A program made the translations under genes and the position numbers. A stretch of 64,000 nt of DNA, taken from assembly GCA_963924565.1 (NCBI GenBank), contig OZ004610.1:10106001-10170000 (forward strand), in the 5' to 3' direction. This DNA comes from Ascidiella aspersa. Lineage: Eukaryota. Each line of letters opens with the position of its first letter. Position 1 is the stretch's first letter. The notes under the pieces were generated by a model. It was given only the letters and a program-made list of their open reading frames with translations, ran no database searches and was not told the DNA's origin. Below, piece after piece: positions 1 to 53,745 of this stretch.

Positions 1-683
1 ATCTTGCCCGCAGATGAATTTGGGCTTTATGTCCGAGCATGATATTATTGAAACTTCCAGCGTCCATGACCCCTTTCCAATTTTTTTACTTATTTAATGC
101 ACAGCAATTTGTCCCGCGTTTCGCACGAATCTCTTTGCGTATACCACGGCGTTTTTTAAACTTGATTAGGTGATGTATTTTGGCGTTTAATAGGAAAACT
201 GTATGTCCGGTCTTTTGAATATAAAACAAAATAAAACGCCTTTTTTCAAATCACTACTTTTTTTAAACCTCAACTGTTAAAAAAATAATATAAGGCTTTC
301 ATAACAATACAAACAGAAATATTCGGCTTGGATTGCCCCTTTCGCTGAAATGTCCCGGCCCCTGTGCTAGCAGCCATACTAGTTGCTGAAAAACGCATTA
401 GACCTAATAAATTAAGGTTTACATTTCCATAGTTGAATTAATTAAGATATTATTGAGGTTAGATTTCGTTACAGGGGCCTAAAATTTTTGCGCGATATTT
501 ATATAAATACTATCAAACTATAGATAGGCTATATAGTGGAAGAAAAAAAAACTTACCACGAGGGTCTGTGAACGCAATTTTAACGTGCGTTTTGTGTCGT
601 TAGTACTAATTATTTGTGTGTTATGTGTTAAAACCGACTTGTACGTTAAATCAGGATTTCTGTAAATTACTGATATCACCGCC

Positions 684-3428: not shown

Positions 3429-4059
3429 AGCGCACCTTTCATGTGGCGCCAAACGTTGTGGAAATAATCGTGTAGATGTCACTCGGTTGTTAATGAAATA
3501 TAAAACATACGATCTATTTGAACTAATGTATTTTCCCATAACTAACCCTAACGGCTTGTCATGATTTATATAACCACCCTTTCTTTAACTTGTAACTATT
3601 ATCTCCCGACCCGTGTTACTGAGTTTGTGTGAATTACAATATTGTCCGTTTATTGTTTATAAAGTTGTCTTAAAAGTAAACTTTAGCGAAAAGTAAAAGA
3701 GGAACCAAATATATTTATTTCAATCGCATTGGTGAAAGTCGAACGACAGCTTTTGTAATTAAAAAAAGGAGTTAGTCGCCGTTTTACGACTATATTATTA
3801 TAAAGTTTGATATTATAAAATATTCCTGATAGGAATTAACATCTATTGGTTTTGCTTTTTATTCCGTAAAAGACTGGAATTTTGAAAATACAGTTATTTA
3901 TTTACCCAGCCATCAATTGCAAAAAAAAATTAAGTTGAAATATGTATATTTTCGGAATTTACCCCAAAGTTTATTGATTGACATGGTATAACAAATACAT
4001 TACTGTATTTATAGCTGCTGTGATTTAATATGTATGATCATTTAACCGTCTGTTTAAAC

Positions 4060-4550
4060 CAGTGGTTCTAAACCTTTTTTTAGCTTACGGACCGGTGAAA
4101 TTTCAAAACAAATTTTGCGGACCGGTGGACCTTTAAAAATCAAAATCAACCCAAAATGTAATTACGGCAAAAGTATGCAACTTAAAAGCAAAGACGGGAA
4201 ACTTCAATTAAATTAGCAATTTTCTGCTGTCTTATATCATACGTGGTATACGAAAGTTTTTCACATACAACTATCTTAAAGAAGACTTCAACGACGTGTA
4301 GCCTACTTATAAACAGTTGGGCACAACACTGCTCATTGTAACGTACGGTAAGTCCAAAGTAGACAATTAACTTTATGTTACGTCACAATGCTGCAAATTA
4401 CGGAACTGGCAAAGTTCTTAATTTGGTAAACAAGCTTTTAACATCTTGCATTTTGCAATTGAGATATCAAATTGTAATATATTTGGCGGACCGGCAGAAA
4501 AGTTGACGCGGACCGGCACCGGTCCGCGGACCGGCGGTTGAGAACCACTG
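4060..4550. mobile_element. hAT-type MITE (CAGTGGTTCT termini)
   Basis: TIRs cagtggttctaaacc / ggttgagaaccactg; degenerate 8-bp TSD gtttaaac/gttaaaat; homologous inverted copy at 29967-30456. Confidence 0.85.
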
Positions 4551-13833: not shown

Positions 13834-16800
13834 CTAATAAAAGTCCAAACAAATCAAAAATCCAACCCTTAAGAGACGTCTCTTGTTGAAGCCACGTTGA
13901 ATAATAGCGCCTTTTTGATTTATGCAGCTTCAGACATTAACGCTCGATATGGAAAAAACGATTTCCACATGATGCGCACATTAATTAAAATGGAACGCAC
14001 AAACACTTTACCGTAGTTATTATTTTGTTTTAACCGCAATGCGGTATATTGTTGTTATTGCTTGTCTTTAATTAAAAATACTTGAGCAATTCTATATCAT
14101 GTTAATGGAGTTCACCGTATTGTTTCATTCATATAGAGATACAGTTTTGTACTGCCTAAGAGCTGAGCCGAACAATGCGCCCTGAAATGCTAAATATTAA
14201 CAAAACTATAAGCCATTTGTCATCAGTGGACTTGACACTTAATCTAAGTAAACAACAGAGTATTTTCTTTCCAGCAATATTTTACGAACTTATTGATGTA
14301 CGCCGAACCGACGAAGCGTTGTGGGAGAAATACAAGACGCCGGCTCCACTTGGCACAGTGCCCCTACCCACTTGCCGTTCGTGATCAAAGCTAACCCCAC
14401 CTAAACCCTATTTTCTAACAACACGCTTTGTTTTTCTCGGTTCGGTTCACCTTCGGTTGAAGTCTCCCGCCCTTAAAAAAAAATTTGGCTATTCGGCAAA
14501 AAAAAAATTGCGCAACAGTTTGCACGTTATTGGCGCCAGACGAATTTAAATCTGAAGGTGGAAAAGCTTTAGAAAATAATGCAGCACTTCACACCACTGC
14601 AAAAGTGTAAATACCAAAATAATGACGCATCCTACACCTTTTGTCCATTTTATTTATTTATTGTCGCAAATGCTATATTTTACTATCCAAAATATTAGCC
14701 ATTTTTTAATAAAGAATTTTTTTATGTAAAATGCCCAAACAAATTTACAGAAGCGAGACGAGCAAATGCATATCTCTAAAAGAGATGTTTTGACAAAAGA
14801 GATGTTTTGACAAAATATACGTTTTGTCGTAACTACGTATATTTTTTGTTCGTCTGAAGATGACCTTTATACGTAATGATTGTGCGCCAAGTTTTGGGCT
14901 AGTCCATGTTAAGTTGTTAAAAAAATCAAGCTCAAATCTGAACTTTTTTGCAGTGTTGAAGTTTAATTAACACTGCGAGTTATACCTTGACTTTTTTAAA
15001 CTTTTTATTTTACAAGTTAATGCGTATATTTGTTAGATTCCAAACAACTATTTTGCGTTATATTTGTGTAAGGTCATTACAATACTAACAACGGGGTTAT
15101 TGCAAAACTCTTACCGATTTAGGGAACACACAATAAGACCTAAAAACAACAATATCTCAATCAGAAAAAACCTATATACCATAGTATTAAGACCAGAAAC
15201 GACTTAATAAAGCCAAATACACAGTGATATCCAGTACAGAATAAGATCGAAATCGTCTCAATGATATTTAAATCTGACGAAATACGCCGTAAATCTATCG
15301 GAAGAAGGCCTACGGCCAAAATAACGCCTGAAACTATAAGTAGGGGGTATTGGATAAATGGGGGCCGTCGGTCTGGCACCGACCGTTCTGGTGTCGACGT
15401 TAGGACGCCCTAATTTGACCGGCGCCATTAGGGGGCCGCTATTTTAACACCGGATTTTGGGCCTCGCGTAGGTTTATTGGTGGGTAATGAGTGGGGTTAA
15501 AAAAATGTAGCGTTAAAGTTATTAGGGGAGTTAGTGATGTACATAGGGGTTAGGTTTGGGTCTATGTAAAGTGTTGCTTAGACCAGATTCTGACCATATA
15601 GGCCTTATTCCGACGGGTTTAGGACTTATTCCGATTTGGACTGTACTACGACTATTGGGTGTTAATCCTATTTTATTTTTATTCGTAACTGTGTTTATTC
15701 CAACGTTACCGTTGTTATTATTTCGGTCTTATGGCTGGGGTCCGCATTTCGCAACTGCAGATAACCCAAGCCGATGCCTTACAAATATAATAAGAAGTTA
15801 AATCACAGATTTCGTACCGTGTCAATAATAATAGATAAAGTGCGATTTAAAAACAAAAAGTATTAACAATTTACCACCAATGAAGAACATGATCCCGCTG
15901 GTGATCATCAATTTCCTCTTTTTATTGGGCGTTTCCTCGAGCAACCTTGAGCACTGAAGACCGACAAGCACGAAACAGCACCCGACAAACGTCAAGATTA
16001 TCGCAATGCACATCATGCCGCGAATCGCGTTCAGGTACGCTGAAACAAGAAACCAAACCTTATTTGATGCGATACTTGTAGATAAATTGCACAGTAGATG
16101 GGCCTGTAAGAAAAATAATAAGTGGTCTTATTTGCTTTTAATTTCTTTAGTTGTCCTAATCGACCCGCTGCTTAACAACCGATAAAACTGTGGCACCGGC
16201 AAAGATTCATATTTTTGCACCGACAAAATCTTGATCAAAGTTGACAGCTCTTTAAACAAAATCTACTAAGAGATTTTTTGCGTGCATTTTCTGATCGAGT
16301 TCCAGAAGCTTCTCCCGGATTAACTTTCATTCCAATTACCGTCTTCGAGAAACATGGAGGCCTGTTCCTCGCAAAAGTACTGGCCGGCATAGACCTGCAT
16401 GCACTCTGCCCAGATGCCCTTCCAGTTCCAAGTCGGGCCCATCATCGTGGAAGATGCGGCCCCGTTCATGACCCACTGGTTCCAAAATGTCGTCGCGATT
16501 ACTGTGGATGACGACAACGCTGCTCCGAGAAAACACCCTACCTGACCGTACATTGCGACGCGACTATATCACAGCTTTGCGAAAAAAATTTGCTGCGGCT
16601 TATGTCCTGCCTGATCAAAAGATTTGTATTTAAAGGCTTTAATATATATAGCGGATTTTTTTGTTAGTGATCAGATTGTTTTAGTTCGCGTATTTTCGTT
16701 GTCGTTTATATTACTTTATTTTAAAGCAAATTTTAGTGAAACATGTTAAATATTTTTTTTCCCGTTAAGTGTTTTACACATGTTTTTTTCCTTATCTACT

Positions 16801-19800
16801 CATCTTAAACAATTTATATCCACAACAACTTTTCTGCCAATTGCGCATTTAGGTGCGTAACAAACTAACCACGAAGTAGCAGATCTCGTGCGGTTTTGGT
16901 GTTTTTTTCTGTTCAAAGCCCGTTTTTCTCGCCACCAAGCGTTTAAACCTATTTTCACACTGTTTGACTTATTTGCTTAACTTTGTTGGTTGATATTCTA
17001 TCAGTTTGAGTGGAAATTTTGAAACATCTATATTCTTTTATATGTGATGTCATCGTTTTTATCAATGCGCTCCTATTTTATGAAAAGCGGCAATATAATT
17101 AAAAAGATTAAATTTAGAATCAAATAAAAAAACTGAATTTCGATTGGCGGAGAATATCAGCAGTTAGCCTTAACGTTGTAAAGCATCATTGTTTGGAATA
17201 TAAAATCTCTTTCAAGCTTTGTGTTGGCTATTAAAAATGTTCTTCTTATGCCCCCGTTTTAGTCAGGACAGTCCCGATTTTTAGGGCATCGCCACGGCGT
17301 TCCGATTAGTCAATGTCACGTTTTTAGTCAGCCAGCATTTTCCTTATAGGAAACTAGATACGGGTAATAGACCTTGCGGTCGTGATTGGTCTGTTTTGCT
17401 AACTTTTTATGAGCAATAGCCTACATGTGCGATTTTATTTCCTTTAAATGTAAATGTAATTTCTATGTTTCTAAATAGCGTGTATTTGGTGTTTTGGTCC
17501 AGCGGTGGGTTGATTGTTAGCGCATTAGCTATTTCAGAAAAAATATGCCAAGAAATGTTATTGTAGCAAGAAGTTACAATCGAGCTTAAAAGTCAAAATC
17601 GAAAAAAAAAATGTTGCTTTCGGTGTTTGGCAGCATCCTGACCCAAAAATATGGCATCCCATTAGCATAATTAAACGTTTAACGACTAACGTACACGGCG
17701 GTCTAAATAGAAAAGCATGGCCAAAAATAGAATTAGGTTTATAACTTTACGAGCAGAAAATCAAAAGCATGAAAAATATAATTGCGTTTTTGTGATTAAT
17801 TACACCTATGTACGATATTATGTTATGCACCAAATTCACACTTTTTTCGAGTGTATAAATGTGTTTGGATGTTACGTGTTGCGTATAACAAAATCCCACT
17901 CCCCTTTACAAATATTTCCACTCGAAACGGCATAATCGTCGCCAAGCGGCGCCTTGGTAAACAACGGTTGAAATCGCTGGTGCGCATCGAGCGAAGCGTT
18001 AAAGTTGTTTGCTTAATGTTAGTAGTGATGTTAGTGAAGCCGTTTAATCTGATAAATCTTATAAATTCAAACTGGCAAGGCCCAGTGATTAATAAAAACA
18101 ACCTCTCTAGACCTTGGTTAAGTAGGTGGTTTATGTTGTTTGTAACTTATTTTTTTTTGTTAATGGAAACCAGTATTTTTTTTCTAAAATTATGATTGAA
18201 ATCTAGCGTCAGTCGTCAGTTCAGCAGAACTCTTGGGAGGAAAGGTTTAATATTGTTTCTTCAGACAAAATTAATTTACTATGTATTAGAAACTTGCTTG
18301 TAATTTAACTTAAGCGTTCAACTTTGTTGAATTTATGAACATTAAAGTTGGTGTGAACGCTGTTTTATTTTTTAGATTTTGTTACACATGGTAAAAATAA
18401 CCTTTTGAAAAATGGCACTGAACATGGCGCAACAACCTGTATCCCATTTCAAACATAAACCACTCAACCGAAAACAGGAATCCAAAATGGTCAAACAGCG
18501 TAATGTTGTGGAATACCAGAGCAGCGATGAAAGTGGCGACACTTACTCTGATTCAGAATACAGTGAATTTTCTGATGACCTCGATCCACCATGGACTGAA
18601 GAACCAATGAGGACTGGAGAGTTGTTTTATATTGAAGATAATCAGCCCACTAGTGATCTTCCAGAAGGTTCCTACTCTGCAAATGCTCAACAAGATGAAA
18701 GTAATTTAACCAGGGCATTTTACAATGTGTATGTCAGAATAGATGCTTCTGCCTATCTGAGAAAACCTCCGACTCATTTACTTGCAAGTATGTTGGGGAT
18801 CATTACGCTGGAAGGAAAAATTCCTAGCAGACAAATGCACCAAAAAGTAGTTGTTGACGCTTTGGTACCTGGCGGTTTGGCACTTAGAACTGGACAAATA
18901 AAAGTTGGTGATATTTTGATTGCCATCAACGATGTCGCAGTGACCACTGTTAACATTGAACACTTCTTGCGCAGTTTTCCTCAACCATCCAAAGTCAAAC
19001 TAACACTTGAAAACTCGCAAAATGAATTTCCTTTGCAAAATTTAAGTAAGATGAAGGCTACTGATCAATTAATCAATAGCTCTGTTCAACTTTTAAGTCC
19101 TAACAAAATAGCCATCAAACACAAAAGTTCACTGTCTGGGCCAAACGGTGTATTTTTTCTCACATTAAATATAAGATCGGATACAGCAGGTGAAAATGAT
19201 GATGTTTTATACTCCTTTTCACCTCTTGAATCATCAGCCCTACCATCCAAGCTTGCCCTTATAAGAGGTATGTTTGTCACTCTGGCTGATTCAATTGAGG
19301 ACACATTTGCATGTGCTGTGAAAAGCTCAACTTTGGTTGTTGAGGAAAAACTTGTACATTGTGTTTACCACCATGTGGACACCGAGGTTTTTGTTTTATG
19401 TTTTCCAGCTGATGACTATTCACTACCAAGGGCACACCATACAATGGCGGATACAGTTCGTCTTCTTAGCGTCATGTATGGGTCTGTGCTGCAGGCATTT
19501 CAACCAGAAAACAAACAGAGACTGGACCATTTGTTTCAGTTTTTGCTAACATTAAATGCATCGGCAGCCAACATGTTCCAATCAATGTCAAACACTTGGA
19601 AATTTCCTGGCATAGAATTTTTGTCACTTCCCAAAGATTTACATGCACATGCCAACTTTGCCTTGGCTGAATTAGAAGCTTGCGATTTTGATGATGGTAC
19701 AAGTGGCAGGAACTACACTAGACGTTTATACACTATCAGGGGATCATGTGTGTTCTATGATGGCTACATACTAGCCACACACCTACCTCCCGAGGATTTA

Positions 19801-22800
19801 AAGGACATTGCTTTGTTTAGTTACAACCATTCACTTCTTTGTGAAAGTAATAAAGAGAGAATAGGTCTTCTTTTAATTTGGCGTGAAGTTTTTCCCTGGA
19901 GTAAAAGAGTAGCAGCGACAAAGGGAGACTACCTGCCGGCAAATGGAAGATATTTTTGGATGTTTGTAGGTTTAAAACACAGCCTTCTGTGTGTTTTGTT
20001 ACAAATGAATGGCAACCTTTTTCCAGACTCTCACACTCCAAGACCAGATCCAATGTATGTGAGCAAGGCTCGTGCTACGTTGCTTAACTTGGACACTCAG
20101 CGATTTCAAGAATATGTTAAAAAGCGTTTGGAGTGCCCATCCCACCCTTGTCTGGTACAATCAGATCATTTTTTATCCCAGGGCACTTCCGGATTAGGGC
20201 AGCTGTTCAAAGGTGCCAAACCACCTAGTGGAATGAAGCCAGACCGAAGTCAGAAGTTTCCATTTAGCTCACCATTAAAATCAAAGAAATCTGTTGACGG
20301 CGAGCCTTCCCCAAAGCTACAAGTCAAGTCACAAAAAGACATAGCAATTGGCGAAAAAACTCCACCCATGTCTGTGAGGAGCCTGTTTCGAGAGAAATCT
20401 TTTAGCTCTCAGGGTTCCACAGAAAGTGGTAAGTCAACCAAAGCAAATGTGGCCTCAGCATATTCGTTAAATGATATCAGGGATGTTATAGAAGATGTTG
20501 ACATGAGCGAAATACAGCCCTACAAGCAACTTACTATTGGAGTTGAAAATGCACTTTTTTGTTACCTATCTTTTGACAAATTACAAGGAACTTTGATTGT
20601 ACCAACTGCTAATGACTTGCAAACTATAAACTCTGCATTACACAGGGAAATTGTTTCCAACTTTAAATTACATTGCATGGTCCTACATCAAAGATTTTCG
20701 TGCTGCAGACCAGACAGTGACCATTGTACTGAAGAAGGAATTCTTTTTCAGTGTCACAGGCCAACTACACAAAATAATTATAAGAACAAACCTCCGTTTT
20801 TACAGTATTGGGTAATCGGCCGTTGTGTGCAAAAACCTGTTCAGAAGGAAATTTATGTGTGTTTTCATAATTCGGCATCTCAAAACATGGTTGAGCTTGC
20901 GTTTAAAATGATGTGAAATTATTTGCTAATTTGAAATCTACCTAACTGCTAAGTAATCTTTTTGACCATTGTGTTCATTTGTTGGTACCAAAAAACTGTA
21001 TTATTTTTTACGTGTAATTCATTTCTTTCCCTTGTTTTAATTCCAATGCAATAGTTTCATATATTTTTTAAACAGTTTGAATGCTTTGTACAAGTTAAAA
21101 TTAATTTTTTGCCAAGTTATTAATAGTTCAGTAACAACTCAGTGACGCTGCACTCTTGTTTTTTTTGTGTCGTTCGTGATACTGATTGCATATATTTTAT
21201 TTTTGATTTTCTGCAGTATTTTCTTTCTTGCAAGTATTTTTAAACATTGTTTTCAAAGATAAGCGCTATTAAAGTAAAATAACGTTTCGTAAAGCGACTG
21301 TAGTTATTAGCCTAACTAATCGCCTGTCGTTAAAGACGCAAAATGCGTGAACACTACCAATTATCTTTGCAACCGTAGTTTTAGACAATGGTTGAAACTC
21401 TCACCTTCATGAAATATCAACAATTTACATATTACAACAGGATTCGAACTAGGCCTATTAAAACGAAATAATTTTTTGTAGTTTAAACACCCTGTTAGTG
21501 TAGGCTTTCAAGAGCTGCAGGTTTGTATCAGCTACAAACTTAGAATAGGAATAAACTCATCAAGCCTTTTCTTCATTTTGTCAATATTTAAACGCATTTA
21601 TCGAACAAAATCAACAGTCAAACGCCAGCCAGACTGCAACAGTGCAACCTGTTAAAAATCGTTTCATAAGGGATGATGAAAAAAAAGTCGACAACACAAC
21701 ACGTTTAGAATCCGTGAAAAAATAATAAAAAAAAAAAAATTCCTTAAACTTTATTCTATTTTCCTTAAACATTTTAACGAAATGCTGTTTCGCAGCGTCC
21801 AGGCTTACGTTAGCCATAGATTTATTCGGAAACTCACTGCAGGAAATTTTTTTTATTCACTTTGCTTGCTGATAAAAAAAAATAGCATTTTAGGTGATAA
21901 ACATACCTTTAAACACCCGATCCGTCAGAAATCAGTGCATATCTAAGCAAAAAGGTCTATGACAATCAGCGCATCCTAAGGCAGAAAAGTCTAGACTTTT
22001 AGACCTTGAGGTCTTGGACAATGCACTGATTGTGAGCCCTATGCAGATTTGGTTTGTAAGCGTTCACCCCATCCGTCAGAAATCAGTGCAGTTCTAAGCA
22101 AAAAGGTATACGACAATCAGTGCATTCAAAGGATCAAAAAGTCCGACTTTTAGGTCTTGGACAATGCACTAATTTGCATTAACAAATGTGCATAAGAAGA
22201 TTAAGTTTAACAATACTTGACCCAACCAAACCCAAACGCTAACCAGCGCCCTAACCCAAATAATGTGCGATAATTTAATAATTATAACGCTTCAGGCCCC
22301 AATACCTCAATTTGTGATGTAATAATCTTAAATGCAATTGACGAGAAACCATCTTATGCCCATCCGAGTTTGGGCTTTTTTCCCCAGCATTTAAAGAATT
22401 ATTAAAATAACGCACATTATTTGGGTTAGGATTCGGGTTAGCGTTAGGGTTTAGGTGGGTCAAGTGTTATTAATCCTATCTCATACTTTTTGTTATCTTT
22501 TCTGAACTTTTAATGAATATTTTTAATTAATCTACGCCGGGAGTTTACCTAAAGATCCAAATCAGTGCATTGCCAGGACCTCAAGGTCTAAAAGTCTAGA
22601 CTTTTCTGCCATTGGATGCCCTGATTGTCGTAGACCTTTTTGCTTAGAAATGCACTGATTTCTAACGGATCGGGTGCTTTAAAGGTGGATAAGTTACTTA
22701 TACAACACAGTTTTAAATTTTCCGGCAAATCTATTTAAAACTGTGATTGAGGTTATAATGACAACCTTTCGGTCTTTTACGTTGTGTTTTTTTCAGTTGA

Positions 22801-25800
22801 GTTTGAGTGGCGGAAATTTGATTTTTGGTTTAGGCATAGCCTATAGCGCTTTTCAATCATCCCAGCAAAATCATGTGGTTTGTGTGTTACCGACGACAGG
22901 ACAAGTAGGCTACATATCACCGGGACTGCAGTAAGGTTAAAATGATTCTAAGCGTAATATTTCGTTTTTCAAGTCAAAAGATTAAATTTACCCTTTTCTT
23001 CAATCTTTTAACGTGGGCAAGAGGGGGTTCTTCGAGTTGTTGTGTTGTATAGCATCTTGTGCAATTTACATTGATTTAACCCAATATTAAAACCACACAT
23101 TTCGAGTCACCGAGTTAATCACGACTTACATTCATTGAGGCAAGCCGATCGGTATTGCTGTTTGCTATCGGTCGTTCACCTTTCTGTAGGCAACATGCAC
23201 TAAACATGTGTCAATGTACCCGCATGTACATAATCCTAACAGTGTCATGTTGTTGAATTATTTGCCATTCACGACAGATTTGTAAGGTCTGGTTTAAAGT
23301 ATTGGGGCCCGGGTATAATTTTTTATCTATAATCGGGCACTCGGTTACAAATTGTTTCAGACATATAGTTGGTAAAGTCAGTTTAAATAATGTTTACTGT
23401 TCTAATGTTTTCTACCGTGTTTACAAAAAATCCCGCGTTGCACATGTTTTAGGACTGTTGAAATATAACTATTTTGAATCTCTTGAAAGCTAAGATATTA
23501 TAAAAATTACTTTGCAAACAATTGTTTGGCTATTTTCGCCATATCTTTGCCGCAGCTTATTGCCTGTAAAAAATATTCAGTCAGAAAACAATGACTCACA
23601 GTAGTGTTTTACAATTGCCCAAATATGTTACCATTATGGCTATAGACCTATAAATGAAAACCTACCAGGGAAATTGATCCAATCAATGACCAAATTTTCT
23701 AACGCAAAATAGTTCCCAATGCAGGAAACACCCGTTGCCAAGGAAGACAAAAATCCCAGAATAAGGCTGGCTATTTGACAATACATTTGTAGAGTCTGTA
23801 AATACTGAAGTAAAATAAGCATTGTGTTTTAACATTTTCTTGCACATGGACCAAATAGGCTAAACAGACCAGTGTATTTATGCCAACATATCGCAATCTA
23901 AAGTCAACCAGTAAGGATATAGAAAGCCGCGGCGCGATAAAACAAGGGCATTGGACAATTTCCAACAAAGCAAAATCAGACAAACTTGTTATCTTGCATA
24001 TTATAGACTCTGCGACACAATGTAAACCTACGACACTTTTAAGGCTTACATATTTTTTTAAGAAGCTCACGAAACTTCCCAATTGTAAGATAAGGGGAAT
24101 ATAAAACGTTATATTTCGGAGCTTTGGAGCAACTAACAATCAAATAATGCATTTTAGGGGTGCCGCCGATTTTTTAGGTTTCGTGTCGGGGAAACTGTTT
24201 TAGAGCCCGAAACAAAACTCCACGAATCACAGGCTATATATGCTACTCTTCTGGTGTAGGATGATTTTATTTTTTCCCTGAGGAAATGTTAACTCTTTCA
24301 AAACAACATTTTATCTTCACATAAAACCTGTCTTTTGCGCAACTACGTGTAAAACTTCTGTTTTAATTCTGTTCTGTAGAATCCATATCTCGTCAGCTTT
24401 TCATTTGCAACAGTTGCGGTATCGGTTAAGAGGTCGCAAAACTCTGCCAACCGCAGGCACCAACAGGTGTAGATGTAGCCACTCTGACGCGCCTGACAAC
24501 AGATTGCGCTGTATGTGTTGTCAAAACTAAATGATATCTACTGCAGTAAGACTTTATGTTATGTTGTCCAAATATGTTATGTATGTTATGTTGTCCAGAG
24601 CAATATAATCAAAGTATTCCAGCCAATCTACAAAACATGTTTTCTCAGGTCAAACTTACATCATCTTTCTAAATCTAAACGGACGCTCTCTTCCATTTAT
24701 CATATACGGTACTTTACAAGTTTAGAGCCACAAGCAAACATTTATATCTGAACACAATAATTACACAAACAACACTAGTTCAATTTTTTTTTTGGCATGT
24801 AATGCTTACAAAAATTAGACATGCCATGAGCTAAGTTATGTTTTTTATGTTAGTGTAACGGTTTTAAAGGTAAAATTATGCATAGGTTGCTGGCAAAATT
24901 TTATACTGATAAATATGGACAGGAGTGCGGAAGCTGGAATCAGCATCGGGCCGTCCCAGGAAAAGTAGATATATTTCATTTATGTAGATACGTAGATTGT
25001 AAATAAAAAGATTTGCCAATTTTAACTAAACATACGCATATTTTTCGCTATTTGAGTGTAATTTTGCCCAATTACAATTGCACGAATCAAGGTTCGCCCC
25101 AGATGAAGAGTTACTACATAAAAGTGCTTAAAAGAGTTTTATCGTGTGTCGCCAAATCTGTTCTTACTTTAAGGTTATTTTTCGACAATTGATTAACAAG
25201 TAGAATTTTTAGAAATGCGGCTGGTTTCGCTTCTTCTGTATTGCTAAATTTTTGTTTATAACTTTTTGTTTATTCATCAAGCTATTTTTGTTTACAAAAT
25301 TTTTGTTAGGCAAATAATACACGGCAACCCCCAGACAAAACATGGCTACCCACAGGTTGGAAATCAGTTTACTAAAATCATTTTGGCGCCTAAATTAGCG
25401 CCCCCAGTTTAAAGTATACTGTTTATTTATAAAAATCAGCAAGCCCTGTTTTTATATCGATTGAATGCTACCTATACACTAACAATATTTCATACTTTTT
25501 CTTGACAGCGTGACCAAATAAACAAAAAATAATTTGAATTTTTTTGTTTAATAAAAAAACTCAAATTTGCTATCGATCGCATTAGTTGTTTTTTTACAGC
25601 AAACCAGAATAGATATTTAACTGATGCGTTCAACAGACCAAGCAGGGAAATCTCAGTGCTGTATTCTTCATCAGGTATAATTTTACTCGTGATTTTTTTC
25701 AATGATTTTGGCAAGTATAGAGCAAACAAAAGTAACGGTTTGTTTAAGTCAGGTTGATTCACGTTTGAAGCCATACACCTACCAGGCAGATCCATCAAAG

Positions 25801-27973
25801 TCACATCGAAGTTGTCGCATTGAAACTGCCCAGTGGCGTACTGCATGCATTGTTCCCAAATCCCGTTCCAGGCCCAAATCGCGTTCAGCAAAGATGTACT
25901 ATGGGGCCCTGATATGGCCCACTGGTTCCAAATACAGGTCAAAGTTGCACTCGCTAACGCAAGTGTTCCAAAAATAAAACAACTTATTTGACATAACATG
26001 GTTTTGCCTGTATAATAAAACTATCTCAACTGTGAAATTCATCCAAAGTAACAAAATTAAAAATTGAAAAACATCTTTGCACTTTAGGGCCTTTTTGTTT
26101 GGTAGAATGATCAATCGCGTAAATATTTCGTTAGTTTTGATTTAGTTAGTATGTAAAAAGGGGTTAATATTCGTTTTTTTATTGGTTAAGTCAAACTTAA
26201 CTAATAGTTTAGATATTTTCGACTTATGATTATGATTAGAGTATTATTTTTCCATAAATGTTCAACTATATAACAACATATAAATTGCATCGAAAATCCA
26301 TTGATGTCATTAAAGTAAAAAAGCGTTCTTTATCCAAACTTAATAAATATTTTAGAAGTCAACTTAAAGCAGTTAAAACTTGCCAATTTTATATGATCTT
26401 TACCGAAAGCTCATTTCTAATGCTTTGAGCAAGCTCTTAAATAGTTAACACACCCTTCCTACAAAAACTAAAACAGCGGCTTGATGTTGCGTTGTACTTC
26501 ATAAGATAACAGTGGTCTTCATCACGAGGGACAACCCGTGATGCCATACGCGGCTTAAGTGACGGTCATTCACCTACTTGCGGTGGGGATCAGACATCAA
26601 GGATGTGTTGCATATTTGCCTGACACACATGTAAAATAAGAAGCGTTGCTGTTTTTATCACGTAGCTAACTGTCGCATTTTTCAGTGAATGTCCACCATT
26701 CGTTCCACCAATCATAACCCGATACAACGTCAATCTTAACGCAGTGGTCGGGTAATTTATATTACTTTAATCCAGATTAGTTATCGAATGACCTGGTTTT
26801 CTGACAGCACGATGTCTGATAGGTCCACTTCAACCGATGTTTATTGTTTACCTTGATAAAATTTCCTATACTTTTCAGTTAGGTGTGTCTACCGTCTGGC
26901 GAGTGTAAGACTATACGGAATATACGGAAGCAAGCGACACGTCCTGGGCAAAAAATGACGCGTCATCAAACAGCGTATGTTTACCGATGCTTTTTTTGCG
27001 CCAATAAGCGCACCTGCATACTGATTTATAAATGGTAGGCTTTGTATCCCAGCTCGGTTATCTCGCAGTTGCAATACATGAAATCACGTCGAAAGCAATA
27101 CACATGAAAGCACGTTGTTTATAAATTCTGAATAATATCCTTCGAAAAGTAAATCGATTTCTGTTTTTTTTATACCGGTATTCAAAACAATGAAAAAAGC
27201 AATACAACCAAAGATCTTTAAACTGTTGAATAAAAATATACAAGACATTTCGTGTTTCATGAGAAATTGTTTCAGCATCCTATATAATTTTTGTGGAGTG
27301 ATGCAACCTTGGATCACATTTTATTAGCGGTGAGATATTCCTTGTATGAGATTTCATAGCGAATCACTGTTAGTGTGGCTTAATTATGTTTTGCGATCAA
27401 ATGGGATTTACCAAAGTTAAATTAACACGCTTTCCTTCTCAGTGTCTTATTATCACTGAAATCAGATGCCTGATTCTCACCTGTATTTTTGTAAATAGTC
27501 TAAATATTGATCTGGTTTAAAAGAGAGAAAAAAATAAGTCATATTTTACATTTTAAGGTCTGTAAAATCATTAAATATAAGTATTTTTAGCTATGTTCGA
27601 CTTATGTATAATTTTCCAATTTTCAACTTAAACAAATTCACAGATTTCGTTCAAACAGCATGCGCATATTGCTTATATACGAAAACAACCTTCCGAGTTA
27701 AAGGTGAAAAGTTTTAGCGTCTTAAGGGTACGAATTTGCAATCGTTTACTTACTAGGAAGGTTAATCCACATCATAGCGAAATTGTCGCACTGAAACTGT
27801 CCCGTGGTGTACTGCAGGCATTGTTCCCAAATCCCGTTCCACGCCCAGATCGAGTTAAGGAGCGATGAGCTCTCAGGGGCATTGCTGACAGCCCATAGGT
27901 TCCAAAAGCAGGTAAAGGTCGTTCCAAATGTAGAAATGCATCCGACGATGAAGGTGCACATTTGACCGTACAT
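13556..27973 (-). CDS. CLDN: Claudin locus with four alternative first coding exons (V1-V4) and two shared constant exons
   Basis: V1 27973-27754, V2 25999-25783, V3 23786-23666 and V4 16553-16340 all end in phase-1 GT donors; each joins in frame to C1 16039-15875 and C2 13833-13556. Predicted proteins 220, 219, 187 and 218 aa. Confidence 0.8.
15131..15733. mobile_element. Foldback/MITE-like element in the claudin C1-C2 intron (ends approximate)
   Basis: Inverted ends ataagacc.aaa..aacaac / gttgtt...tttcggtcttat; internal ggggttaggttt motifs. Confidence 0.5.
15875..16039 (-). CDS. CLDN: Claudin constant exon C1 (TM2, intracellular loop, TM3)
   Basis: Acceptor ttgtttcag, donor G|gtaaat; YLNAIRGMMC...VGLQCSR...K....SGIMFFIGG. 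Confidence 0.92.
16340..16553 (-). CDS. CLDN: Claudin variable exon V4 (proximal; TM1+ECL1)
   Basis: W...WKGIWAEC...GQYFC signature; donor GAC G|gtaatt, phase 1. Confidence 0.92.
18412..20916 (+). CDS. INTU: Protein inturned (CPLANE/PCP effector; PDZ + longin domains), single coding exon, 834 aa
   Basis: PDZ (LVPGGLALRTGQIKVGDILIAIND), IRGMFVTLAD, LAELEA.DF, RRLYTIRGSCVFYDGYILATHLP, and C-terminal YWVIGR...EIYVCFH...VELAFK, all characteristic of Inturned. Confidence 0.95.
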   Translation: MALNMAQQPVSHFKHKPLNRKQESKMVKQRNVVEYQSSDESGDTYSDSEYSEFSDDLDPPWTEEPMRTGELFYIEDNQPTSDLPEGSYSANAQQDESNLTRAFYNVYVRIDASAYLRKPPTHLLASMLGIITLEGKIPSRQMHQKVVVDALVPGGLALRTGQIKVGDILIAINDVAVTTVNIEHFLRSFPQPSKVKLTLENSQNEFPLQNLSKMKATDQLINSSVQLLSPNKIAIKHKSSLSGPNGVFFLTLNIRSDTAGENDDVLYSFSPLESSALPSKLALIRGMFVTLADSIEDTFACAVKSSTLVVEEKLVHCVYHHVDTEVFVLCFPADDYSLPRAHHTMADTVRLLSVMYGSVLQAFQPENKQRLDHLFQFLLTLNASAANMFQSMSNTWKFPGIEFLSLPKDLHAHANFALAELEACDFDDGTSGRNYTRRLYTIRGSCVFYDGYILATHLPPEDLKDIALFSYNHSLLCESNKERIGLLLIWREVFPWSKRVAATKGDYLPANGRYFWMFVGLKHSLLCVLLQMNGNLFPDSHTPRPDPMYVSKARATLLNLDTQRFQEYVKKRLECPSHPCLVQSDHFLSQGTSGLGQLFKGAKPPSGMKPDRSQKFPFSSPLKSKKSVDGEPSPKLQVKSQKDIAIGEKTPPMSVRSLFREKSFSSQGSTESGKSTKANVASAYSLNDIRDVIEDVDMSEIQPYKQLTIGVENALFCYLSFDKLQGTLIVPTANDLQTINSALHREIVSNFKLHCMVLHQRFSCCRPDSDHCTEEGILFQCHRPTTQNNYKNKPPFLQYWVIGRCVQKPVQKEIYVCFHNSASQNMVELAFKMM
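21914..22676. mobile_element. Foldback element with ~120-bp TIRs and a telomere-like internal module
   Basis: 21914-22031 is the reverse complement of ~22560-22676; an extra tandem arm copy lies at ~22065-22172; inner inverted pair ~22212-22260 / ~22420-22472 carries ccctaaccc motifs. Confidence 0.85.
23666..23786 (-). CDS. CLDN: Claudin variable exon V3 (TM1 plus very short loop, no GIW-C-C signature)
   Basis: MYCQIASLILGFLSSLATGVSCIGNYFALENLVIDWINFP; homologous to V1/V2 at both ends; donor CCT G|gtaggt identical to the V2 donor, phase 1. Confidence 0.7.
25783..25999 (-). CDS. CLDN: Claudin variable exon V2 (TM1+ECL1)
   Basis: WNQW...WNGIWEQC...GQFQC signature; donor CCT G|gtaggt, phase 1. 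Confidence 0.9.
27754..27973 (-). CDS. CLDN: Claudin variable exon V1 (distal; TM1+ECL1)
   Basis: WNLW...WNGIWEQC...GQFQC signature; donor CCT A|gtaagt, phase 1. Confidence 0.9.
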
Positions 27974-37442: not shown

Positions 37443-40400
37443 ATGGACTTCTCAGATGTTCTTATAGAACAACTTTCTTCTGCCATTAAAGCTGTATGTA
37501 GCCTTTGTTCTAAATTTAAATGCCAACTATGTGTGTGTGTAGTGTGTTCACTTAAATATTTAAAATACTGACTTGTAACTTGTATTGAAAATGTATACAA
37601 TATAAGTTACTGAAAATTTTTTTATTGAAAATTTATTTTGTAAATACATAAAATAATTATTTACTATTTTTTTTCTTTGTCGTCTAATTCCAGGTTCAAA
37701 TACATCAAGTCTTAGTGGACGATGCTGAAGGGTTTGGGAATGACAATAGCAAATCTGTTAATACACTTCTGCTTAGCCTTGACAAGATATTTCTTTATGG
37801 GTACTGTATGTTGTCCAATTTAAAAAAAAAACATTTAAGCAATTTTTATTGAGTTTGCCATGAAGAGTTTGTCAGCTTACAATAAAAAATAAAAGCAATT
37901 CCTTTTATGCGTCATAATAGTTTATTTAAACTAAAAGTTTATTGTATAATGTCATATATTTTTGTTTAATAAATATTTTTAATTTTCATAGGTTGCGAAA
38001 CAAGCAAAATGGATATTGGAATGTCGTTAGACCCTATTGTAAAAGAGACATGGTTCAAATGTTGTATTCTCTTCGGAATGTAACTACTGATCTGGGAAGA
38101 GGTTTGAGCTTCTTTTTTTCACAGAAAAACATAAGTAAAAAAACAATAAGAAATAAGTAATTGATCAGACCAAAGGTTTCAAAAATTGGGTTTGACAAAT
38201 AGAAAAACTTTTGGATAGATTTGAAAAACTTTTGGATATTACTATTATTTACTATCATTTTTTTACAAAGTTTTGTTATGTATATTGATTTTGTTTTTTG
38301 ATTTTTTATACAGGCCTGTGTGAAAAACTAAAAAATAGTCTGAGTTTGTCATACTAATTATATTGAAAAGTTTGGAAACCACTAGACCCGTTTAAGAAAT
38401 TTAATTGCCTTTTTACAAATATGGTTTTCGCATTTAGTCAAACATATTTTTTGTTCAAATGTTTTTGATATATAATATGTTTATCCATTTATTTTTAGGT
38501 CGTGCTTGGTTATGTGTAGCACTCAATGAAAAGTTACTTGAAAGCTTTTTAATTAATATCCAACATGGTATGCAGCAAATGGATATGTTCTACAACAGGT
38601 AAGTACTAATATTTGCTTTACCTTTGTTAACTAACTTTCCTTATTTTAAGCAAATATTGTGTGGTTATTCTAATTAGCTTTTTTACAATGTATTTATATT
38701 AATTCAATACCAAAGTTGCGCCTCTGTAAAAAAATTTTAAATAATTTTTAAAAGTTAAATAGATAATAAATGATTTTATTATTTTCACAGCTTTGCAATT
38801 ATCAAGTCACACAAGGTAAGATAAGTTTTGTGTCAATTTTATAATAGTTACTCTGTGTGTTTGAGTCTTTACTTTCCCTGTTTTCACTATTTTTTATTGT
38901 TTCTCTGACCTGATGAAGCATGGTTGTGTGAAAACTCATTAACTTGTTAACAGTGACACCTGTTTTCAGTTTTTGAATAATACAAATACATAGTCTATCA
39001 ACCAAGATTTTTATAATAGTGCATTAATCTTATGCAAGAAAAAGTTTTAGTGGCTCACTTAACATTTTTTAAAGTCATAAATAGTATTTGAATCGTACCG
39101 AACTACTCATCCAGGCCATATAAATTATTGATACATGTAAGCATGCACATCTGTGATATATATACTGTTAAAACTTTATGGGCTGGGTAAAAGGAAATTG
39201 ATATTTATTTAGACAGGCACACATGCAGACATGAGGCAGTGGGACTATGTATGAGAAAATAAGGCATGAGTTTGCCTTTTTTCCTGTTTTTTTTAATAAT
39301 GGATTATTTTTAATTATTATAATTGGATAAAGTTGTATTGTATTTACAAAACATCCAAATAATGTCAGTCCTAGGCATGCTTTAAAACCTCATTACAAAA
39401 TATCATTTTTCCTCTTATTGTTTTCAGATTCATCTGTTTGTTGATTTGTTATGTGGATTGGAGTTTGTCGATTTTTCTTTAGATATGGTGAGAAAACATA
39501 CATGTTATTTAAAAAAAACAATAGGTTTTTACTTCATCAGACACAATGGTTCCAATTGTCTGTCGAAATGTAAATTATAGACTCTAAATATCTAATTTAC
39601 ATTCTATACCTAGTCTATTCTGAAACAAGTGACAGTTAGATTTATACTTTTCTATACAGGACCAAAGTTTTCTTGATATATCAATGCTTCCAACAAATAC
39701 ACCTGAACCCCCAAGGTTGCCCTATATAGCGCCTACACTTTCAGAAAGTTTAAATCCCAATGTTGAAGCTGGTTCCTCTGTTTATATTAACACAGACCCT
39801 ATCGCAAATCTAGCCAAAGTTGGAACTCAAAAGGCTGCCAATGCTTTGCAAGGTTTTCTACAATCTTCTTCTCGGAAGATTTTCAACAGGCGAACAGAGA
39901 CAGGAATAGTTTTGGACACCATTTATGATTATTCCACTTGCATACCAACGACTCGGCCTCCTACAGAATGTTTGCTAACTTCAGATGAGGACATACAACA
40001 CAATCCAACTCTATTGGAACCACTTATTCCGCCAATTGATTGCCCAACAGCACTACCCAGTTCACAAAATATATATTCAGCCCAAATTGACATCCCTAGT
40101 TTTAGTGTTGAGTCAAACTCTGGTGTAAATGTGAAAAATTTAAAACACAACCCCAGGGTAAGGCACAATCCATTCGGAACTGTCAGTGAAGAACAAATTG
40201 CTGAAGAAATCAAGCTGAACTATGCACCTTCATCTGCCACCAGACACAACTTGGATGTCCTTGTAACTGACAATCCCATTGAGGTGGTTCACCAAAGAAA
40301 GCGAAAGAAGAGTGACAAGCGTAAGAAACAAAAAACAAAATCGCAAAGTACGCAGTGCGATGAAATCAAACTAAAAAGAGAATTTTGTGCTGAAACTGAC

Positions 40401-43400
40401 TCTGGCTTAATGAGTGACTGTGAGGATGAGCACTGTTCACTCTATTCAGCCTCCTCTGGCATGAGCACATCATTCAATGATGAACCTATATTTGCTTTGT
40501 CGCCTAACAGCAGTACGCAAGAGTATACCTTGGTAAAAAGCACTTGCTCTATTCAGGAAACCAAAACTTTGAAATATGTTGCACCTGATGTTTCCGATCG
40601 AAACACACTTTTCACAACAAATAACTCGGAGGATTGTGCCATTATAAAAAACACTGCAAGTGCCATGTCTGTTTTTAATGATACAAGTCAGAGTCACACT
40701 GTTTCTACAGATTTAAAATCAGAAATTGCAGAAAATAGTGATACATCTATTTTAAATATGATTTCTATTGACGAAGGTACAGTTGACCTTCATTCCAGCA
40801 ATGTTATTCCATCAACCATGGGTACCTTTAGTTCATGCTTATCAGAGGTTGGCCAGCAAACGTCATGCAACAACAGTGCAATTACAGAGACTGAACAAAA
40901 CACCTCATTTGAAAAAGCATCTGCAATGGGAAATTTAAGTTATTTATATGCTAACGTGCACAAACCTTTAAAGAATTCTATTAATTTGCCTTTTGAACCA
41001 ATACTAGCAGGAAATGAAATTTCCATAAATTCCAGTCTTAAAAAGAGAATTAAAAATTCACCAGTTGATGCTGAAGAAGATTGTTTTCAGCAGCATGTCT
41101 CCACTTCCACTGTGTTGCCTAAAAGTGTTGAAGCAATGGTTGATCATGAGTCACTTTGTGAAAACATTTTAAATGAAATAATTGAAACTGTTCAAATGAG
41201 GTTGTCAATATCAGATTCAGACAAAAAGTCAAATGTTCAATACTGTGAAGACACAGCACAATTCCAGGTTTTAAGCGACTGGTCAATTTACACCTTATCC
41301 TCAATGGATGAGAATGAAAGCATTTCTTTTTCTAAAATAAAAACTGATAATAGCATGTGCCAAAACAAAATATGTGTAAGTCCAAAAATTGTAGATGTTG
41401 TTTCTGAAATTAGTCTTTGCCAAAATAAGGATGAAAGAAAAGAATCCTGTGTATCTAATTTATGTGAAGAAGATTCTATCGCAAGCGAATGCAACTCTGT
41501 TTCAAATTCTGCCAACTGTACAAATTTAAACAAAACCCCAAATGAACATACATGTATTGTAAATATTGACAATAATTTAAAGCTTAAATTAATGCTTGAC
41601 GTGTTTCTCAGTGAAGATGAGCAACTATTAAAGGTAATTTGAATATACATTTTTTTTATAATAATTATACAATATATTATATACATTGTTATAATTTTGC
41701 AGGATAAAACACATTTCGATTATTTTTATCGCTTTTAATATCACTTATTTTTTATATCTCCAGCAGCTCTACATTAATGAGCCTTATTTATATTTATTTT
41801 CTTGTAACAGATGATTAGATTTAAAACGGGCAACCAACAAGAACTTGTAGGTTCTCTACATATTGCTTTTGCTGACAAGTTTGTCTATATCGTAGAAGAG
41901 GATTGTACTTCATTTTTGAGAAAAAATTATTTTGCATACAATAAAGTGTCTATGGAATTTATGTGTGACAACCAGGTGAACTACCAAATAAATACTTAAA
42001 GGACAAACTGTTATTCATGTTGAACTTAAATCTTGCCTTTTCAGGGTGTTTTTATCACTTGTCTAACAACAGGAAAATGTTTGTTTAACTGTGAAACCTC
42101 CGATGCTTCTGTTTCCCAAATAATTCAATCACAATTTATGAAGTATCATGTAACCGATACTACTTTTGTTGCACAACAGGTACTTCATAGCTTTGTCATA
42201 TCTTTAGTCTTGTACTAATTTTATTTTATTTTTGTAGACAGCTGACATTGGGTTTGAGAAGCATTTAGCCGCGATCAGGAAATGCATTTTCTTGGAAACT
42301 GGAAAGCCAAACTGCGTGATTGATCTGTACCGTTTGATTAACATGTTGAACTTGTGCCAGTCGAATATATATGGTTAGAATTGACTACTGGCTCAATAAT
42401 ATACTTGACTGTGTATGGTGTTTTACAGCCCTTCTACATTTTATGATCGTTTTTTAGGACGAAAGGAGGGAATCTTGTTATGCAAAGGTACAAGATCCTT
42501 GTTTTTTAGAGAGCGCTGGAGTAGTTTCAACTTCGTCTTGGATAGGATCAGCCTGTCACAGTTTAAAAACAGGTACATCAATGCTATTAATCAGATGTTT
42601 CGATACTCAATAAACTAATATTTATATAGTAAAACAAAAAAATCAACTGTTTGTTTTTCTGTTGAATGTGTTTTATGCGACCTTTAAGAAGCAGCAGCGT
42701 TATATAACACAAAACTATAAAATAATATTCTGTGAAATTATAGCTCCAAATTCAGAATTGTAGTTATTTAAACGAAAAACTATTAAAACAAAAAGCCTTC
42801 TCTTAGTTATTTACCTTCCATGTTACCCGTCACTTGTCAAACACAGCAAGAACGTGGCGCTCGTGATTGAAAAGCAAATGCGTGGCACGACTCTTTAGCT
42901 AACCAAGTCACATTTTTTGCATTAAGAAACGCCAGCAAACCGGAACAGAGCTGGCAAATATCGAACTTGTTGCACTGCCAGATGTCAATGAACGACCCAT
43001 GCTGCTTCGAGCTGCTAATGAATGACGGCAAGACTGTCGAGCTTAAGGCTTTAAGTGCGCAAGCTTGTACTGAGTGGATCGCCGCCGTTCAAGCCATTAT
43101 CGAGAACCCCAACGCGGTGGGTGACACTGTATGTAAGCTTTCGCGGGTAATACTAATTTACGGAATAACGAATGGTCGGAACGCTCACTAATTTAAGTGT
43201 TTTCACGTTGAAACAATTATTAAACCAACGCACAATATTTGAGTTAGGGTCGGGGTTAGCGTTTGGGTGCAGGTGGGTCAAGTGTTATTATATTTAATAA
43301 TAATACTGTGTGCGTTCCGACCATTTATCATTCCGTAAATTAGTGTTACCTGCTTTTGCGGTCGTGCGTTATCGTTTTTTTTTTGTATTCGCATATGAAA

Positions 43401-45730
43401 GCATGAAGGCAAAATAACCAAAAGAAGACGTTTGCCTGATTAAGTTTTATTGTGATGCCATCCCATTGATGCTCCCCATCGTATTTTTTTAAAACGAATT
43501 TATATGAAACAACATATAGTTTTGCTAGGATAGCAAAACTTTACATTAACGTCTTGATTGCTGCTGCAGTGCTACTACTTAAGCCAGTACGAGGATCAAT
43601 ACGTAATTATTTCAATGTACAGGATTGAATTGTGCACTCGCCCGCTCACCAATGCGAGTGAAAATCGCTCCGGGCGAGTGCTGATTGACACCCACGCGCC
43701 CGACTAGCGAGTGGCCTTAGTGAGAAATTTAATTAGTTGTTGCAGGACAACCAAGGGCGTATCCAGAAATCCAAAAAGGGGGTCCCGAATTTTCAACTTA
43801 GGGAATTTCCCGTTTTTCCATCTGACGTTAATCACGTCATAAAATAGTGACAGATATGCCGTCATAAAACAGCGATTGTAATGACGTTTTAAATAATAAA
43901 AAAAAATCATCGGAAACAGCAAATTAACGTCCAGCAAAATCAAACTTTTAGACGCAAAACGCACACGTGCGTCGCCGACACTCCTGCCAGGCGCCAGCTG
44001 CAAAACCGCTTAGTGGGCATTCGTTAACTTCAGGCGAAAAACTAAACAAGACCGTAAAATAAATGTGATTGATTTTGGTAGAACCGTGTACGGGACTACG
44101 CTAAATTACAAGCACGTCCGTCGCCTTCTGCAATACTAAACGAAGATCGTTTTTCCCCGGTGTTATTTGAGTAGCGCAACATCTGCAAAAACGCCACTTT
44201 AATAGTTAATCTAGTTCAGTGTTTATAACCTTTTTAACTGAGTGCATAACTGGCAAGCTAAGCGAACGCGATTTTTGGGGGGGAATAACAGAATTTCATT
44301 TAAATTTCTTGCAAGTTTTTATTACATTGCCGAAAGTAAAAAAGCTGTTAAAAAATATATGATCAATATTGTTTAATACGTTATCCGTTTGTCCGCGACG
44401 CACTTGACAGCCTTCCATGGCGCAACGGTAGAGAAGCGCTGATTTAGTTCAAAAGACAGCACCAAAGCTTACCACACCGGACGTAGAAAGAACATTCGCG
44501 CCAACCGCGAAAAAAAATTTTCGCACCTGCGTAGTTAAAATAGTCAAAAAGTATTTAAAATGGACTCGTGTATAGGTTGTCGAAGAGGCAGCGGACCCGA
44601 TGAATTACAGAGACCGCTTGATTGATTGTTATTAATTGTCGAACACACACTTGCTATTCAGCCAACCCGAACGAGTAACGAAAGGCGAAAGAGAAAAACT
44701 ATCTAGCGTTTACGGTCGACCAAACAAGAAACGAAAAAGGCCTTTGCGTTTGATTTTGGTTTCGCATTATCCAGACGCGTAACTCAATTACACTGAAAAA
44801 AAAACGCAGCTTCGGACGGTGAGTTAAACCCTGACAAAAACGAACAAAAAACGATAATGTCACTTACGAAAAGGGGAGCCCCCCTTGATACGCCCCTGAG
44901 AACAACTCGCCAATACTATGCGAAATATTACTTGTGGCCAGCCAAACGATTCTGTTGCTTGTTGGCTGAAAAGTGTCAATCAAAAGTGACACTAAGTACA
45001 GAAGCAAATTTTCCTCAAATACATTTAACCTTATTGTAAGGCTATTCGAAATCGCGTTATAAACTCGTAATAAACACTATTTGTCCCGTTTTATGATCGT
45101 AATAAAGACTCTTTGTCCCGTTTTTTTTTCGTTTACAGTCAAACAACCAAAGGCGCCATTACTGCAGTGGCAAATAGTTACGAGGTTTATTGATTAACTT
45201 AAACGTTGTAAATTGTTAAATGTTTAACCTATAGTCGTTGAATCCTTTGGAAATATTTCTTGGACTTGCGTTGTACCCAGCGATAAGAATTTTACTTTTT
45301 TGTTTTTATAGTGCCCCAAAACAATCTCAGCGTGCCAAGTTGGTCCAGGTGCTCAACACCTGGCCGAAACCCACTATACTCCAGCACAAAAATGACTCCT
45401 TATCGTGCACTGTTACAGGACTCGAGCGGCTCTTGCGTGTCCTGCTCCGTGGTGGTGGCGGAGAACCAGCTCTTTTTCCTGGAGGAGGAATTCGCTTCGA
45501 TGTTCTGCCGCTGCCTCTCGCGTCTCCAGATGAGCGACATCGACAGCGTCCAGACGCAGAAAGAAGATGATGAAGGATGCGGGTGCATCTTGAAGGCGAG
45601 GTGCGCGGAATGTCGCCGGGAGGAACCGTCGTTTTCCTTAGAAGGAAACTGCTCTTGCACGAATCTGCTCCTTCTATTTCGTACTCCAGACCAACGCCGC
45701 GAGTTTGACCGACTGGTTAAAGGCACTTGA
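37443..45730 (+). CDS. PLEKHM2: PLEKHM2/SKIP-like RUN- and PH-domain protein, 13 coding exons, ~1200 aa
   Basis: Exons 37443-37493, 37694-37800, 37992-38101, 38499-38598, 38791-38815, 39428-39487, 39660-41633, 41811-41975, 42045-42179, 42238-42373, 42458-42572, 42927-43132, 45312-45730 join in frame. RUN motifs LD.IFLYGL, GYW, TDLGRGRAWL.VALNE..LES, GLEF..F.LD; PH domain KEGILLCKG...W...EWIAAV. Confidence 0.88.
43146..43350. mobile_element. Small foldback MITE with telomere-like internal module
   Basis: TIRs ggtaatactaatttacggaat...atggtcggaacgc / gcgttccgaccat...attccgtaaattagtgttacc; internal segment shared with ~22437-22472. Confidence 0.8.
43752..44898. mobile_element. Non-autonomous hAT element containing a nested MITE (44217-44441)
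   Basis: Outer TIRs caagggcgtatccag / cttgatacgcccctg with TSD aggacaac/agaacaac; inner TSD atctagtt/atttagtt. Confidence 0.8.
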
Positions 45731-53700: not shown

Positions 53701-53745
53701 CCAAAGTGGGAGCGAACTTCATCTGAATGTGGCGATTGTCTTTAA
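47739..53745 (+). CDS. WSCD: WSC-domain-containing sulfotransferase (WSCD1/2-like); first exon uncertain
   Basis: In-frame exons 48041-48136, 48490-48607, 48751-48935, 49274-49472, 51313-51611, 51999-52211, 53369-53745. Two WSC domains (YLGC...C...C...CYC...C..PCPG...CG); PAPS motifs SMPGSGNSWLRHLIE and LLRNPYDAIIAEFNR. Candidate signal-anchor exon 47739-47866 is out of phase. Confidence 0.85.
49861..50283. repeat. Repeat with AATGTG(C/T)GCAC-type ends and a pyrimidine-rich aactcttcc core; related copy at ~54236-54510
   Basis: Multiple aatgtgcgcac/aatgtgtgcac motifs flank ~280 bp of C/T-rich degenerate short repeats. Confidence 0.65.
50701..51080. mobile_element. MITE with CAGGGCTGCG termini and gagtc/gactc subterminal repeats
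   Basis: cagggctgcggagtcgg / ccgactacgcagccctg. Confidence 0.8.
52258..52758. mobile_element. hAT MITE with GACTT subterminal repeats
   Basis: cagtgctgta / taaaacactg ends; TSD ccttttac/ccttttat; many tgactt repeats. Confidence 0.75.

Follow-up and report, generated by a model that had tools for sequence, protein, structure and literature searches.

The locus described here raises the question of whether a claudin first exon that has lost the signature of its extracellular loop still encodes a protein that the animal uses, or is a duplicate in decay. The gene lies on the minus strand of a 64,000-nucleotide stretch of Ascidiella aspersa DNA (hereafter the window, to which coordinates refer unless stated) and comprises four alternative first coding exons, followed by a single set of constant exons, C1 and C2. 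V1 (27754..27973; 73 codons plus one nucleotide) encodes TM1 and a full ECL1. V2 spans 25783..25999 (72 codons plus one nucleotide) and ends in the donor CCTG/gtaggt. V3, the loop-less exon, spans 23666..23786 (121 nucleotides, 40 codons plus a G; ATG at 23786), and V4 spans 16340..16612, with its ATG at 16553 (coding 16553-16340; 71 codons plus one nucleotide). C1 (15875..16039) encodes TM2 and the start of TM3, and C2 (13371..13833) encodes TM3, ECL2, TM4, and a tail ending EYI (coding 13833-13556; stop at 13556), followed by the 3′ UTR; splice joints were found at 16039/16340 and 13832/15874. All four first exons are phase 1, and V1, V2, V3, and V4 joined to C1 and C2 give products of 220, 219, 187, and 218 amino acids, respectively, with no internal stops.

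The common exons are homologous to claudins by Pfam and by identity to Ciona. PF00822 was found on C1 at E 0.0026 and on C2 at E 0.00019, each exon scoring below the curated cut-off, and C2 is identical to Ciona intestinalis XP_002128486.1 at 46 of 89 positions. Among solved claudins, a profile of V1, V2, and V4 matched PDB claudin-3 at E 6e-7 (one of 11 sequences within E 10), in an alignment that puts W27 at the first tryptophan of the W-GLW-C-C signature; the signature is present in all three exons. With several same-phase TM1 and ECL1 exons upstream of one constant set, the gene has a layout of the CLDN10/CLDN18 type.

Between V3 and V4 lies a single-exon Inturned gene (Intu; 18415..20913, also given as 18377-21284), nested on the plus strand antisense to the claudin gene, so that transcripts from V1, V2, and V3 must traverse it. 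Intu has Pfam Intu_longin_1/2/3 and PDZ matches over cut-off, is represented by a 2,909-nt contig in run X3 and by reads in run X8, has no introns of its own, and lies within the claudin intron ~1.8 kb from V4 in a head-to-head orientation. The window also holds a further PMP22/claudin-family tetraspan gene (666-3425, plus strand), whose first exon encodes GLF and a pair of cysteines, and an inverted-repeat element (21905-22686; 128 bp arms, 93% alike), likely a non-autonomous transposon, with high RNA depth from other copies. By their motifs, three long open reading frames resemble genes for a PH-domain protein (39633-45727, plus), a WSC-domain sulfotransferase (48698-53742, plus), and a monocarboxylate transporter (58033-62126, minus). 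Exact look-up of five window open reading frames in the protein collection returned 0/5.

V3 aligns to V1 residues 1-29 and 63-73, and V1 residues 30-62 (33 amino acids, 99 bases) are missing. The initial annotation had described V3 as an exon of 40 full codons against 71-73 in V1, V2, and V4, retaining ATG, TM1, WINFP end, upstream acceptor, and phase-1 donor CCTG/gtaggt, with no stop and a missing length that is a multiple of three, and the exon coordinates bear this out. Its claim that the W-G(L/I)W-C-C motif is absent also holds, as G47-I-W49, C52, and C62 fall in the 33-residue gap, as does the predicted 187-aa product of V3, C1, and C2, which has no internal stop, the four hydrophobic segments expected of four transmembrane helices, and the tail RMEYI. 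What did not stand is the description of this loss of ECL1 as clean. V3 also changes W24 to G and W27 to F, the latter requiring two base changes, so that the signature has lost its first W as well. W24 is kept in 21/21 subfamily exons and W27 in 31/31 aligned full-length first exons (23 of 60 profile matches, V1, V2, V4, and five paralog exons). As the signature used to define claudins (PMC3875640) is missing from its ECL1, the V3 product would, on its sequence, be a derived isoform of a claudin gene and not a canonical claudin.

The retained parts of V3 are its TM1, with a hydropathy of 1.95, the highest among the four first exons, and the end ENLVIDWINFP. V3 alone matched no Pfam family or Atlas family. 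A full-sensitivity, six-frame scan of the window for a separate loop-coding exon, with a profile that included V3 itself, found none, the next match being at E 2.2. The acceptor resolves into two candidate AGs (23796..23806, minus strand), 18 and 9 nt before the ATG and recognized from sequence only; V1, V2, and V4 have similar AGs upstream. Splicing at either V3 acceptor would eliminate one in-frame ATG together with three upstream ATGs that are out of frame. The V2 and V3 donors share an identical 10-nt context, and V3 is likely still spliced to C1 and C2, which would yield a four-helix membrane protein. As a candidate PDZ-binding motif, this isoform would have a C-terminal EYI; five full-length relatives end in YV.

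The deletion in V3 is genuine DNA and not an assembly error. A contig of run X2 (8,536 nt, depth 111) spans V3 with one differing letter and no gap, and in run X7, from another study and with SNPs of its own, 16/16 raw reads over V3 are free of any indel, joint, or loose end. V3 is also single copy in the 308.6-Mb genome by DNA search. Run X2 possibly comes from the source project of the assembly itself, and we found no point in favor of an assembly error or private allele, a reading that we consider extremely improbable. The only SNP in the exon, at position 23771, changes codon 6 from Ala to Ser, and variable sites are 1/121 in the exon against 6/250 in the flanks (p 0.43).

To place V3 among its relatives, we used a full profile search, which returned 60 matches at E up to 0.001. 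The nearest named relatives were C. intestinalis XP_002128486.1 (“claudin-19 isoform X3”, a name that implies further isoforms), Ciona savignyi H2Y935, and Clavelina lepadiformis XP_076804861.1 (claudin-19-like). Also pointing to a tunicate is a GH6 domain above the Pfam cut-off, which fits tunicate cellulose synthase. V4 is nearest to the first exon of XP_002128486.1, and V1 and V2 are nearest to that of H2Y935, in which a V1/V2-type exon runs on into a closely similar C1/C2 region. In a tree of 23 of the 60 matches (the best subfamily ones plus five others), the V4-type exons are united in one clade at 99% support; V1, V2, and V3 fall among the V1/V2-type exons in a weak group (59%) that takes in one foreign row. 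Given this clade, the weak V1-V3 grouping, and the exon joining in H2Y935, the array of two exon classes probably goes far back in ascidians, with V3 likely a later duplicate within it; the upstream class has three copies here. No loop-less first exon was found among the 60 matches, from a query profile that favored loop-bearing exons, and a search for a V3 ortholog, itself a weak test, found none. Metagenome loci L026-L029, from one species, carry a V4-type exon and C1 but hold ≤2.1 kb upstream and therefore include no V1-V3 region. Nothing in runs X4 (organism B) and X5 matched V3; as that stretch offered no positive control, the result carries no information on conservation. Word-index searches for proteins, using V2, C2, or the alignment of all four exons as query, gave 0/48, 0/182, and 0/7,417 candidates, respectively, which is weak evidence, and the accessible portion of PMC11203038 gives tunicate claudin orthologs without exon detail.

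We put at an even chance the reading in which V3 is translated and selected as a 187-aa loop-less isoform. Somewhat short of that, but a serious competitor, is a redundant duplicate that died, in which the deletion and the changes at W24 and W27 would mark the onset of decay, and chance alone would have spared the ATG, frame, and donor. Over the 40 shared codons, the V3-V1, V3-V2, and V1-V2 comparisons give 74/120, 67/120, and 73/120 nucleotides, leaving V3 equally distant, and second codon positions are the best kept over the codons common to the three exons. A branch model gave V3 a dN/dS of 0.75-0.97 against a background of 0.22-0.25, and this differs significantly neither from 1 (p 0.80-0.98) nor from the background (p 0.18-0.29). 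A ratio indistinguishable from 1 favors the dead exon and speaks against the isoform, as does the non-synonymous nature of the sole exon SNP. Loss of two otherwise invariant residues points the same way, and a second claudin locus in the genome shows duplicated exons too, so spare copies would be no surprise.

The loss of W24 and W27 implies a phase of relaxed evolution of ~0.15-0.3 substitutions per site, which fits 4-11 log units better than none in a model that holds both tryptophans near-invariant while the exon is functional. A neutral exon would retain its ATG, GT, and frame and acquire no stop with a probability of 0.15-0.25 at d 0.1, a figure that favors a dead exon, and 0.02-0.07 at d 0.2, taking an indel ratio of 0.10, measured from 16 repeat pairs, with 0.05 as a low case. 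A dead V3 would have had to survive the neutral phase of 0.1-0.2 demanded by its own best fit, and its deletion would have had to fall in frame (~1 in 3). Under the codon model, the integrated ratio of “kept translatable” to “dead” for V3 is 31-94, a value that depends on a uniform prior and a home-made model; an earlier, less constrained run, in which the slow class was still free to inflate, gave 18-60. At their best-fitting times, the two models are apart by only 3.2-4.1 log units. A further term for a clean TM1 raised the ratio to 1,400-4,500 but was post hoc and was set aside.

Two features of the protein sequence also argue for the isoform and against a dead exon. V3 residues 2-29 are free of D, E, K, R, and P (neutral probability 0.02-0.29, in a test chosen post hoc with the sequence already known), leaving TM1 uncharged as well as highly hydrophobic, and changes are conservative at 6/8 sites where V1 and V2 agree (p 0.03-0.10). 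Together with the ratio of 31-94, the V2-identical donor context, the same short form in X2 and X7, and an ATG, frame, and donor left intact through a relaxed phase, these support a translated V3. The view of the initial annotation that V3 is not a dead exon gains moderate support from sequence evolution; the V3 dN/dS, indistinguishable from neutral, adds to the case against a clean loss. No precedent for a working loop-less claudin was found, which sets a low prior; combined with the sequence-evolution evidence, this leaves the odds near even, slightly toward a live isoform.

Where two of V1, V2, and V3 agree, the odd one out is V3 at 8 sites, V2 at 6, and V1 at 4, so that V3 is not much faster than its sisters. 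This would suit an atypical loop-bearing exon that lost W24 and W27 first and was deleted only recently, with its fate not yet visible in the sequence. We think this improbable, as W27 is kept in 31/31 loop-bearing exons and no long allele appears in the 16 X7 reads or the X2 contig.

We then considered transcription. Run X3 contains a spliced 912-nt contig of V4, C1, and C2 that carries poly(A) and has a depth of 218, and the run shows zero depth in the V2 and V3 bins and in the repeat-free V1 bin; this sample expresses only V4. Splicing onto the constant exons was therefore seen for one of the four first exons. The contig terminus lies two bases past position 16611, a candidate acceptor; such an end would be consistent with spliced-leader trans-splicing, a process that occurs in tunicates. 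In run X8, where Intu served to assign the strand, the two V2 bins had claudin-sense depths of 0.10 and 0.51, one V1 bin had 0.14, and C1/V4 had 0.29, corresponding to one to three read-equivalents each (~2-3 for the two V2 bins). Sense depth in the V3 bin was 0, and no splice joint appeared in the claudin gene at the listing threshold, with ~6% of the run read and a handful of reads gene-wide, which is too shallow for a verdict on V3. The zero, in a run where the V2 and V1 bins do show a little sense RNA, nonetheless counts for a dead exon and against the isoform, tempered in both cases by this depth. The V3 bin (23160-23823) also has about three read-equivalents of plus-strand RNA, antisense to claudin and possibly Intu read-through or a repeat.

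Since V3 has an acceptor as well as a donor, it could instead act at the RNA level, as a poison exon spliced behind V1 or V2 that shifts the frame and lowers those isoforms. Either acceptor would put a stop at residue 110-114 after V1 or V2. Such an element would, however, have no need for an ATG frame, a hydrophobic TM1, or a conserved WINFP end; V1, V2, and V4 carry similar upstream AGs, and no V1-V3 or V2-V3 joint was seen at this low RNA depth. We regard this reading as unlikely.

If V3 is indeed a translated isoform, its history and action can be outlined as follows. A first exon of the V1/V2 class was presumably duplicated, and 99 bases of the first extracellular loop were lost; with the loop gone, its two anchoring tryptophans would have been free to change, with TM1 and the short segment before TM2 apparently held under protein-level constraint. 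In claudin-15 models, as set out in the accessible parts of the sources, ECH residues packed against TM3/ECS2 keep each row together, beta4-beta4 hydrogen bonds make double rows, and cell-cell contact is made by the beta1-beta2 loop and ECS2 (PMC7037046, PMC9629798). By analogy, the V3 protein, which keeps WINFP from the stretch beyond the second cysteine, would retain the side-by-side contact of ECH with TM3/ECL2 and a PDZ-type tail and would lack beta2-beta4, including the face-to-face contact of beta4, and the beta1-beta2 loop needed in trans. Neither pores nor double-row strands are expected from it; it would enter a row, or draw scaffold away from it, and leave the channel unclosed, acting on the full-length forms as a competitor or as a partner that loosens them. 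The mapping of the deleted strands rests on the PDB alignment and these papers; the predicted fold of the Ciona ortholog has four helices (mean pLDDT 64.7) but falls below 50 over residues 31-70, unusable for this mapping.

The dominant-negative or strand-terminating role proposed by the initial annotation is, on the published claudin-15 strand models, a reasonable inference. A strand-loosening role carries about half of the probability given to the isoform itself, and the more specific proposal, in which V3 would be a strand terminator built into the gene and would set how leaky tunicate tight junctions are, is tentative at best. The V3 protein may alternatively be excluded from strands: the human ECL1 point mutant Cldn10b N48K is described in the available text as left out of meshworks and not poisoning them (PMC9411157), which weighs against a poisoning role for V3.

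How claudin strands end, break, and remodel is an open question. In current models, assembly involves three kinds of contact: ECH acts side by side, beta4 face to face, and the beta1-beta2 loop head to head. V3 deletes the latter two and keeps the first, so that it offers a natural test of the model even if the animal makes no use of it. Were V3 selected and expressed, this claudin gene would code for an antagonist of itself; a dead V3 would be a commonplace decaying duplicate within a known type of exon array.

Related arrangements were seen at two other loci of the genome. At the first (G000:C1:25469300-25477600, minus strand; L014 9310-9505, L015 50-7600), tandem duplicates occur at three positions: three TM1 and ECL1 exons, two TM2 exons, and two TM3/ECL2 exons ~60 nt apart, with one tail exon, which could give up to 3x2x2 combinatorial claudins. 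Its first exons E1a and E1b have separate relatives, the third has no obvious donor, and a protein from elsewhere (P0032) resembles E1a, E2b, E3b, and the tail. The second (G000:C2:6723301-6735730, plus strand; L019, L020) has two claudin ECL1 exons, at 6723301 and 6728619, then one TM2 and one TM3 exon, and is possibly another alternative-first-exon claudin.

Arrays of alternative first exons are themselves an architecture already known from other genes. UGT1 places a tandem array of variable first exons on constant exons, and clustered protocadherins and chelicerate sDscam, as described in accessible text, likewise join tandem variable 5′ exons to constant exons; against these arrays, the present gene has only four cassettes, each with an upstream AG. 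Within the openly accessible literature, we found no report of this array and no natural claudin without the whole ECL1 sheet. The accessible account of chick claudin-23 reports a protein that, like the V3 isoform, has no W-GLW-C-C motif, but that is a separate gene, reported to be without a PDZ-binding tail as well, and no deleted loop is described in that account (PMC3875640). Closest in architecture, a comparison that does not extend to orthology, are human CLDN10 (10a/10b) and CLDN18 (18.1/18.2), in which, according to the accessible parts of the sources, alternative first exons swap TM1 and ECL1 on common downstream exons (PMC6862131, PMC7140793, PMC13650739, PMC12172364); each has two first exons, compared with four here. 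One CLDN10a splice form is described, in the text available, as lacking 19 ECL1 residues (PMC12172364); that loss arises from an alternative donor, whereas V3 carries a genomic deletion that removes 33 residues and the whole signature.
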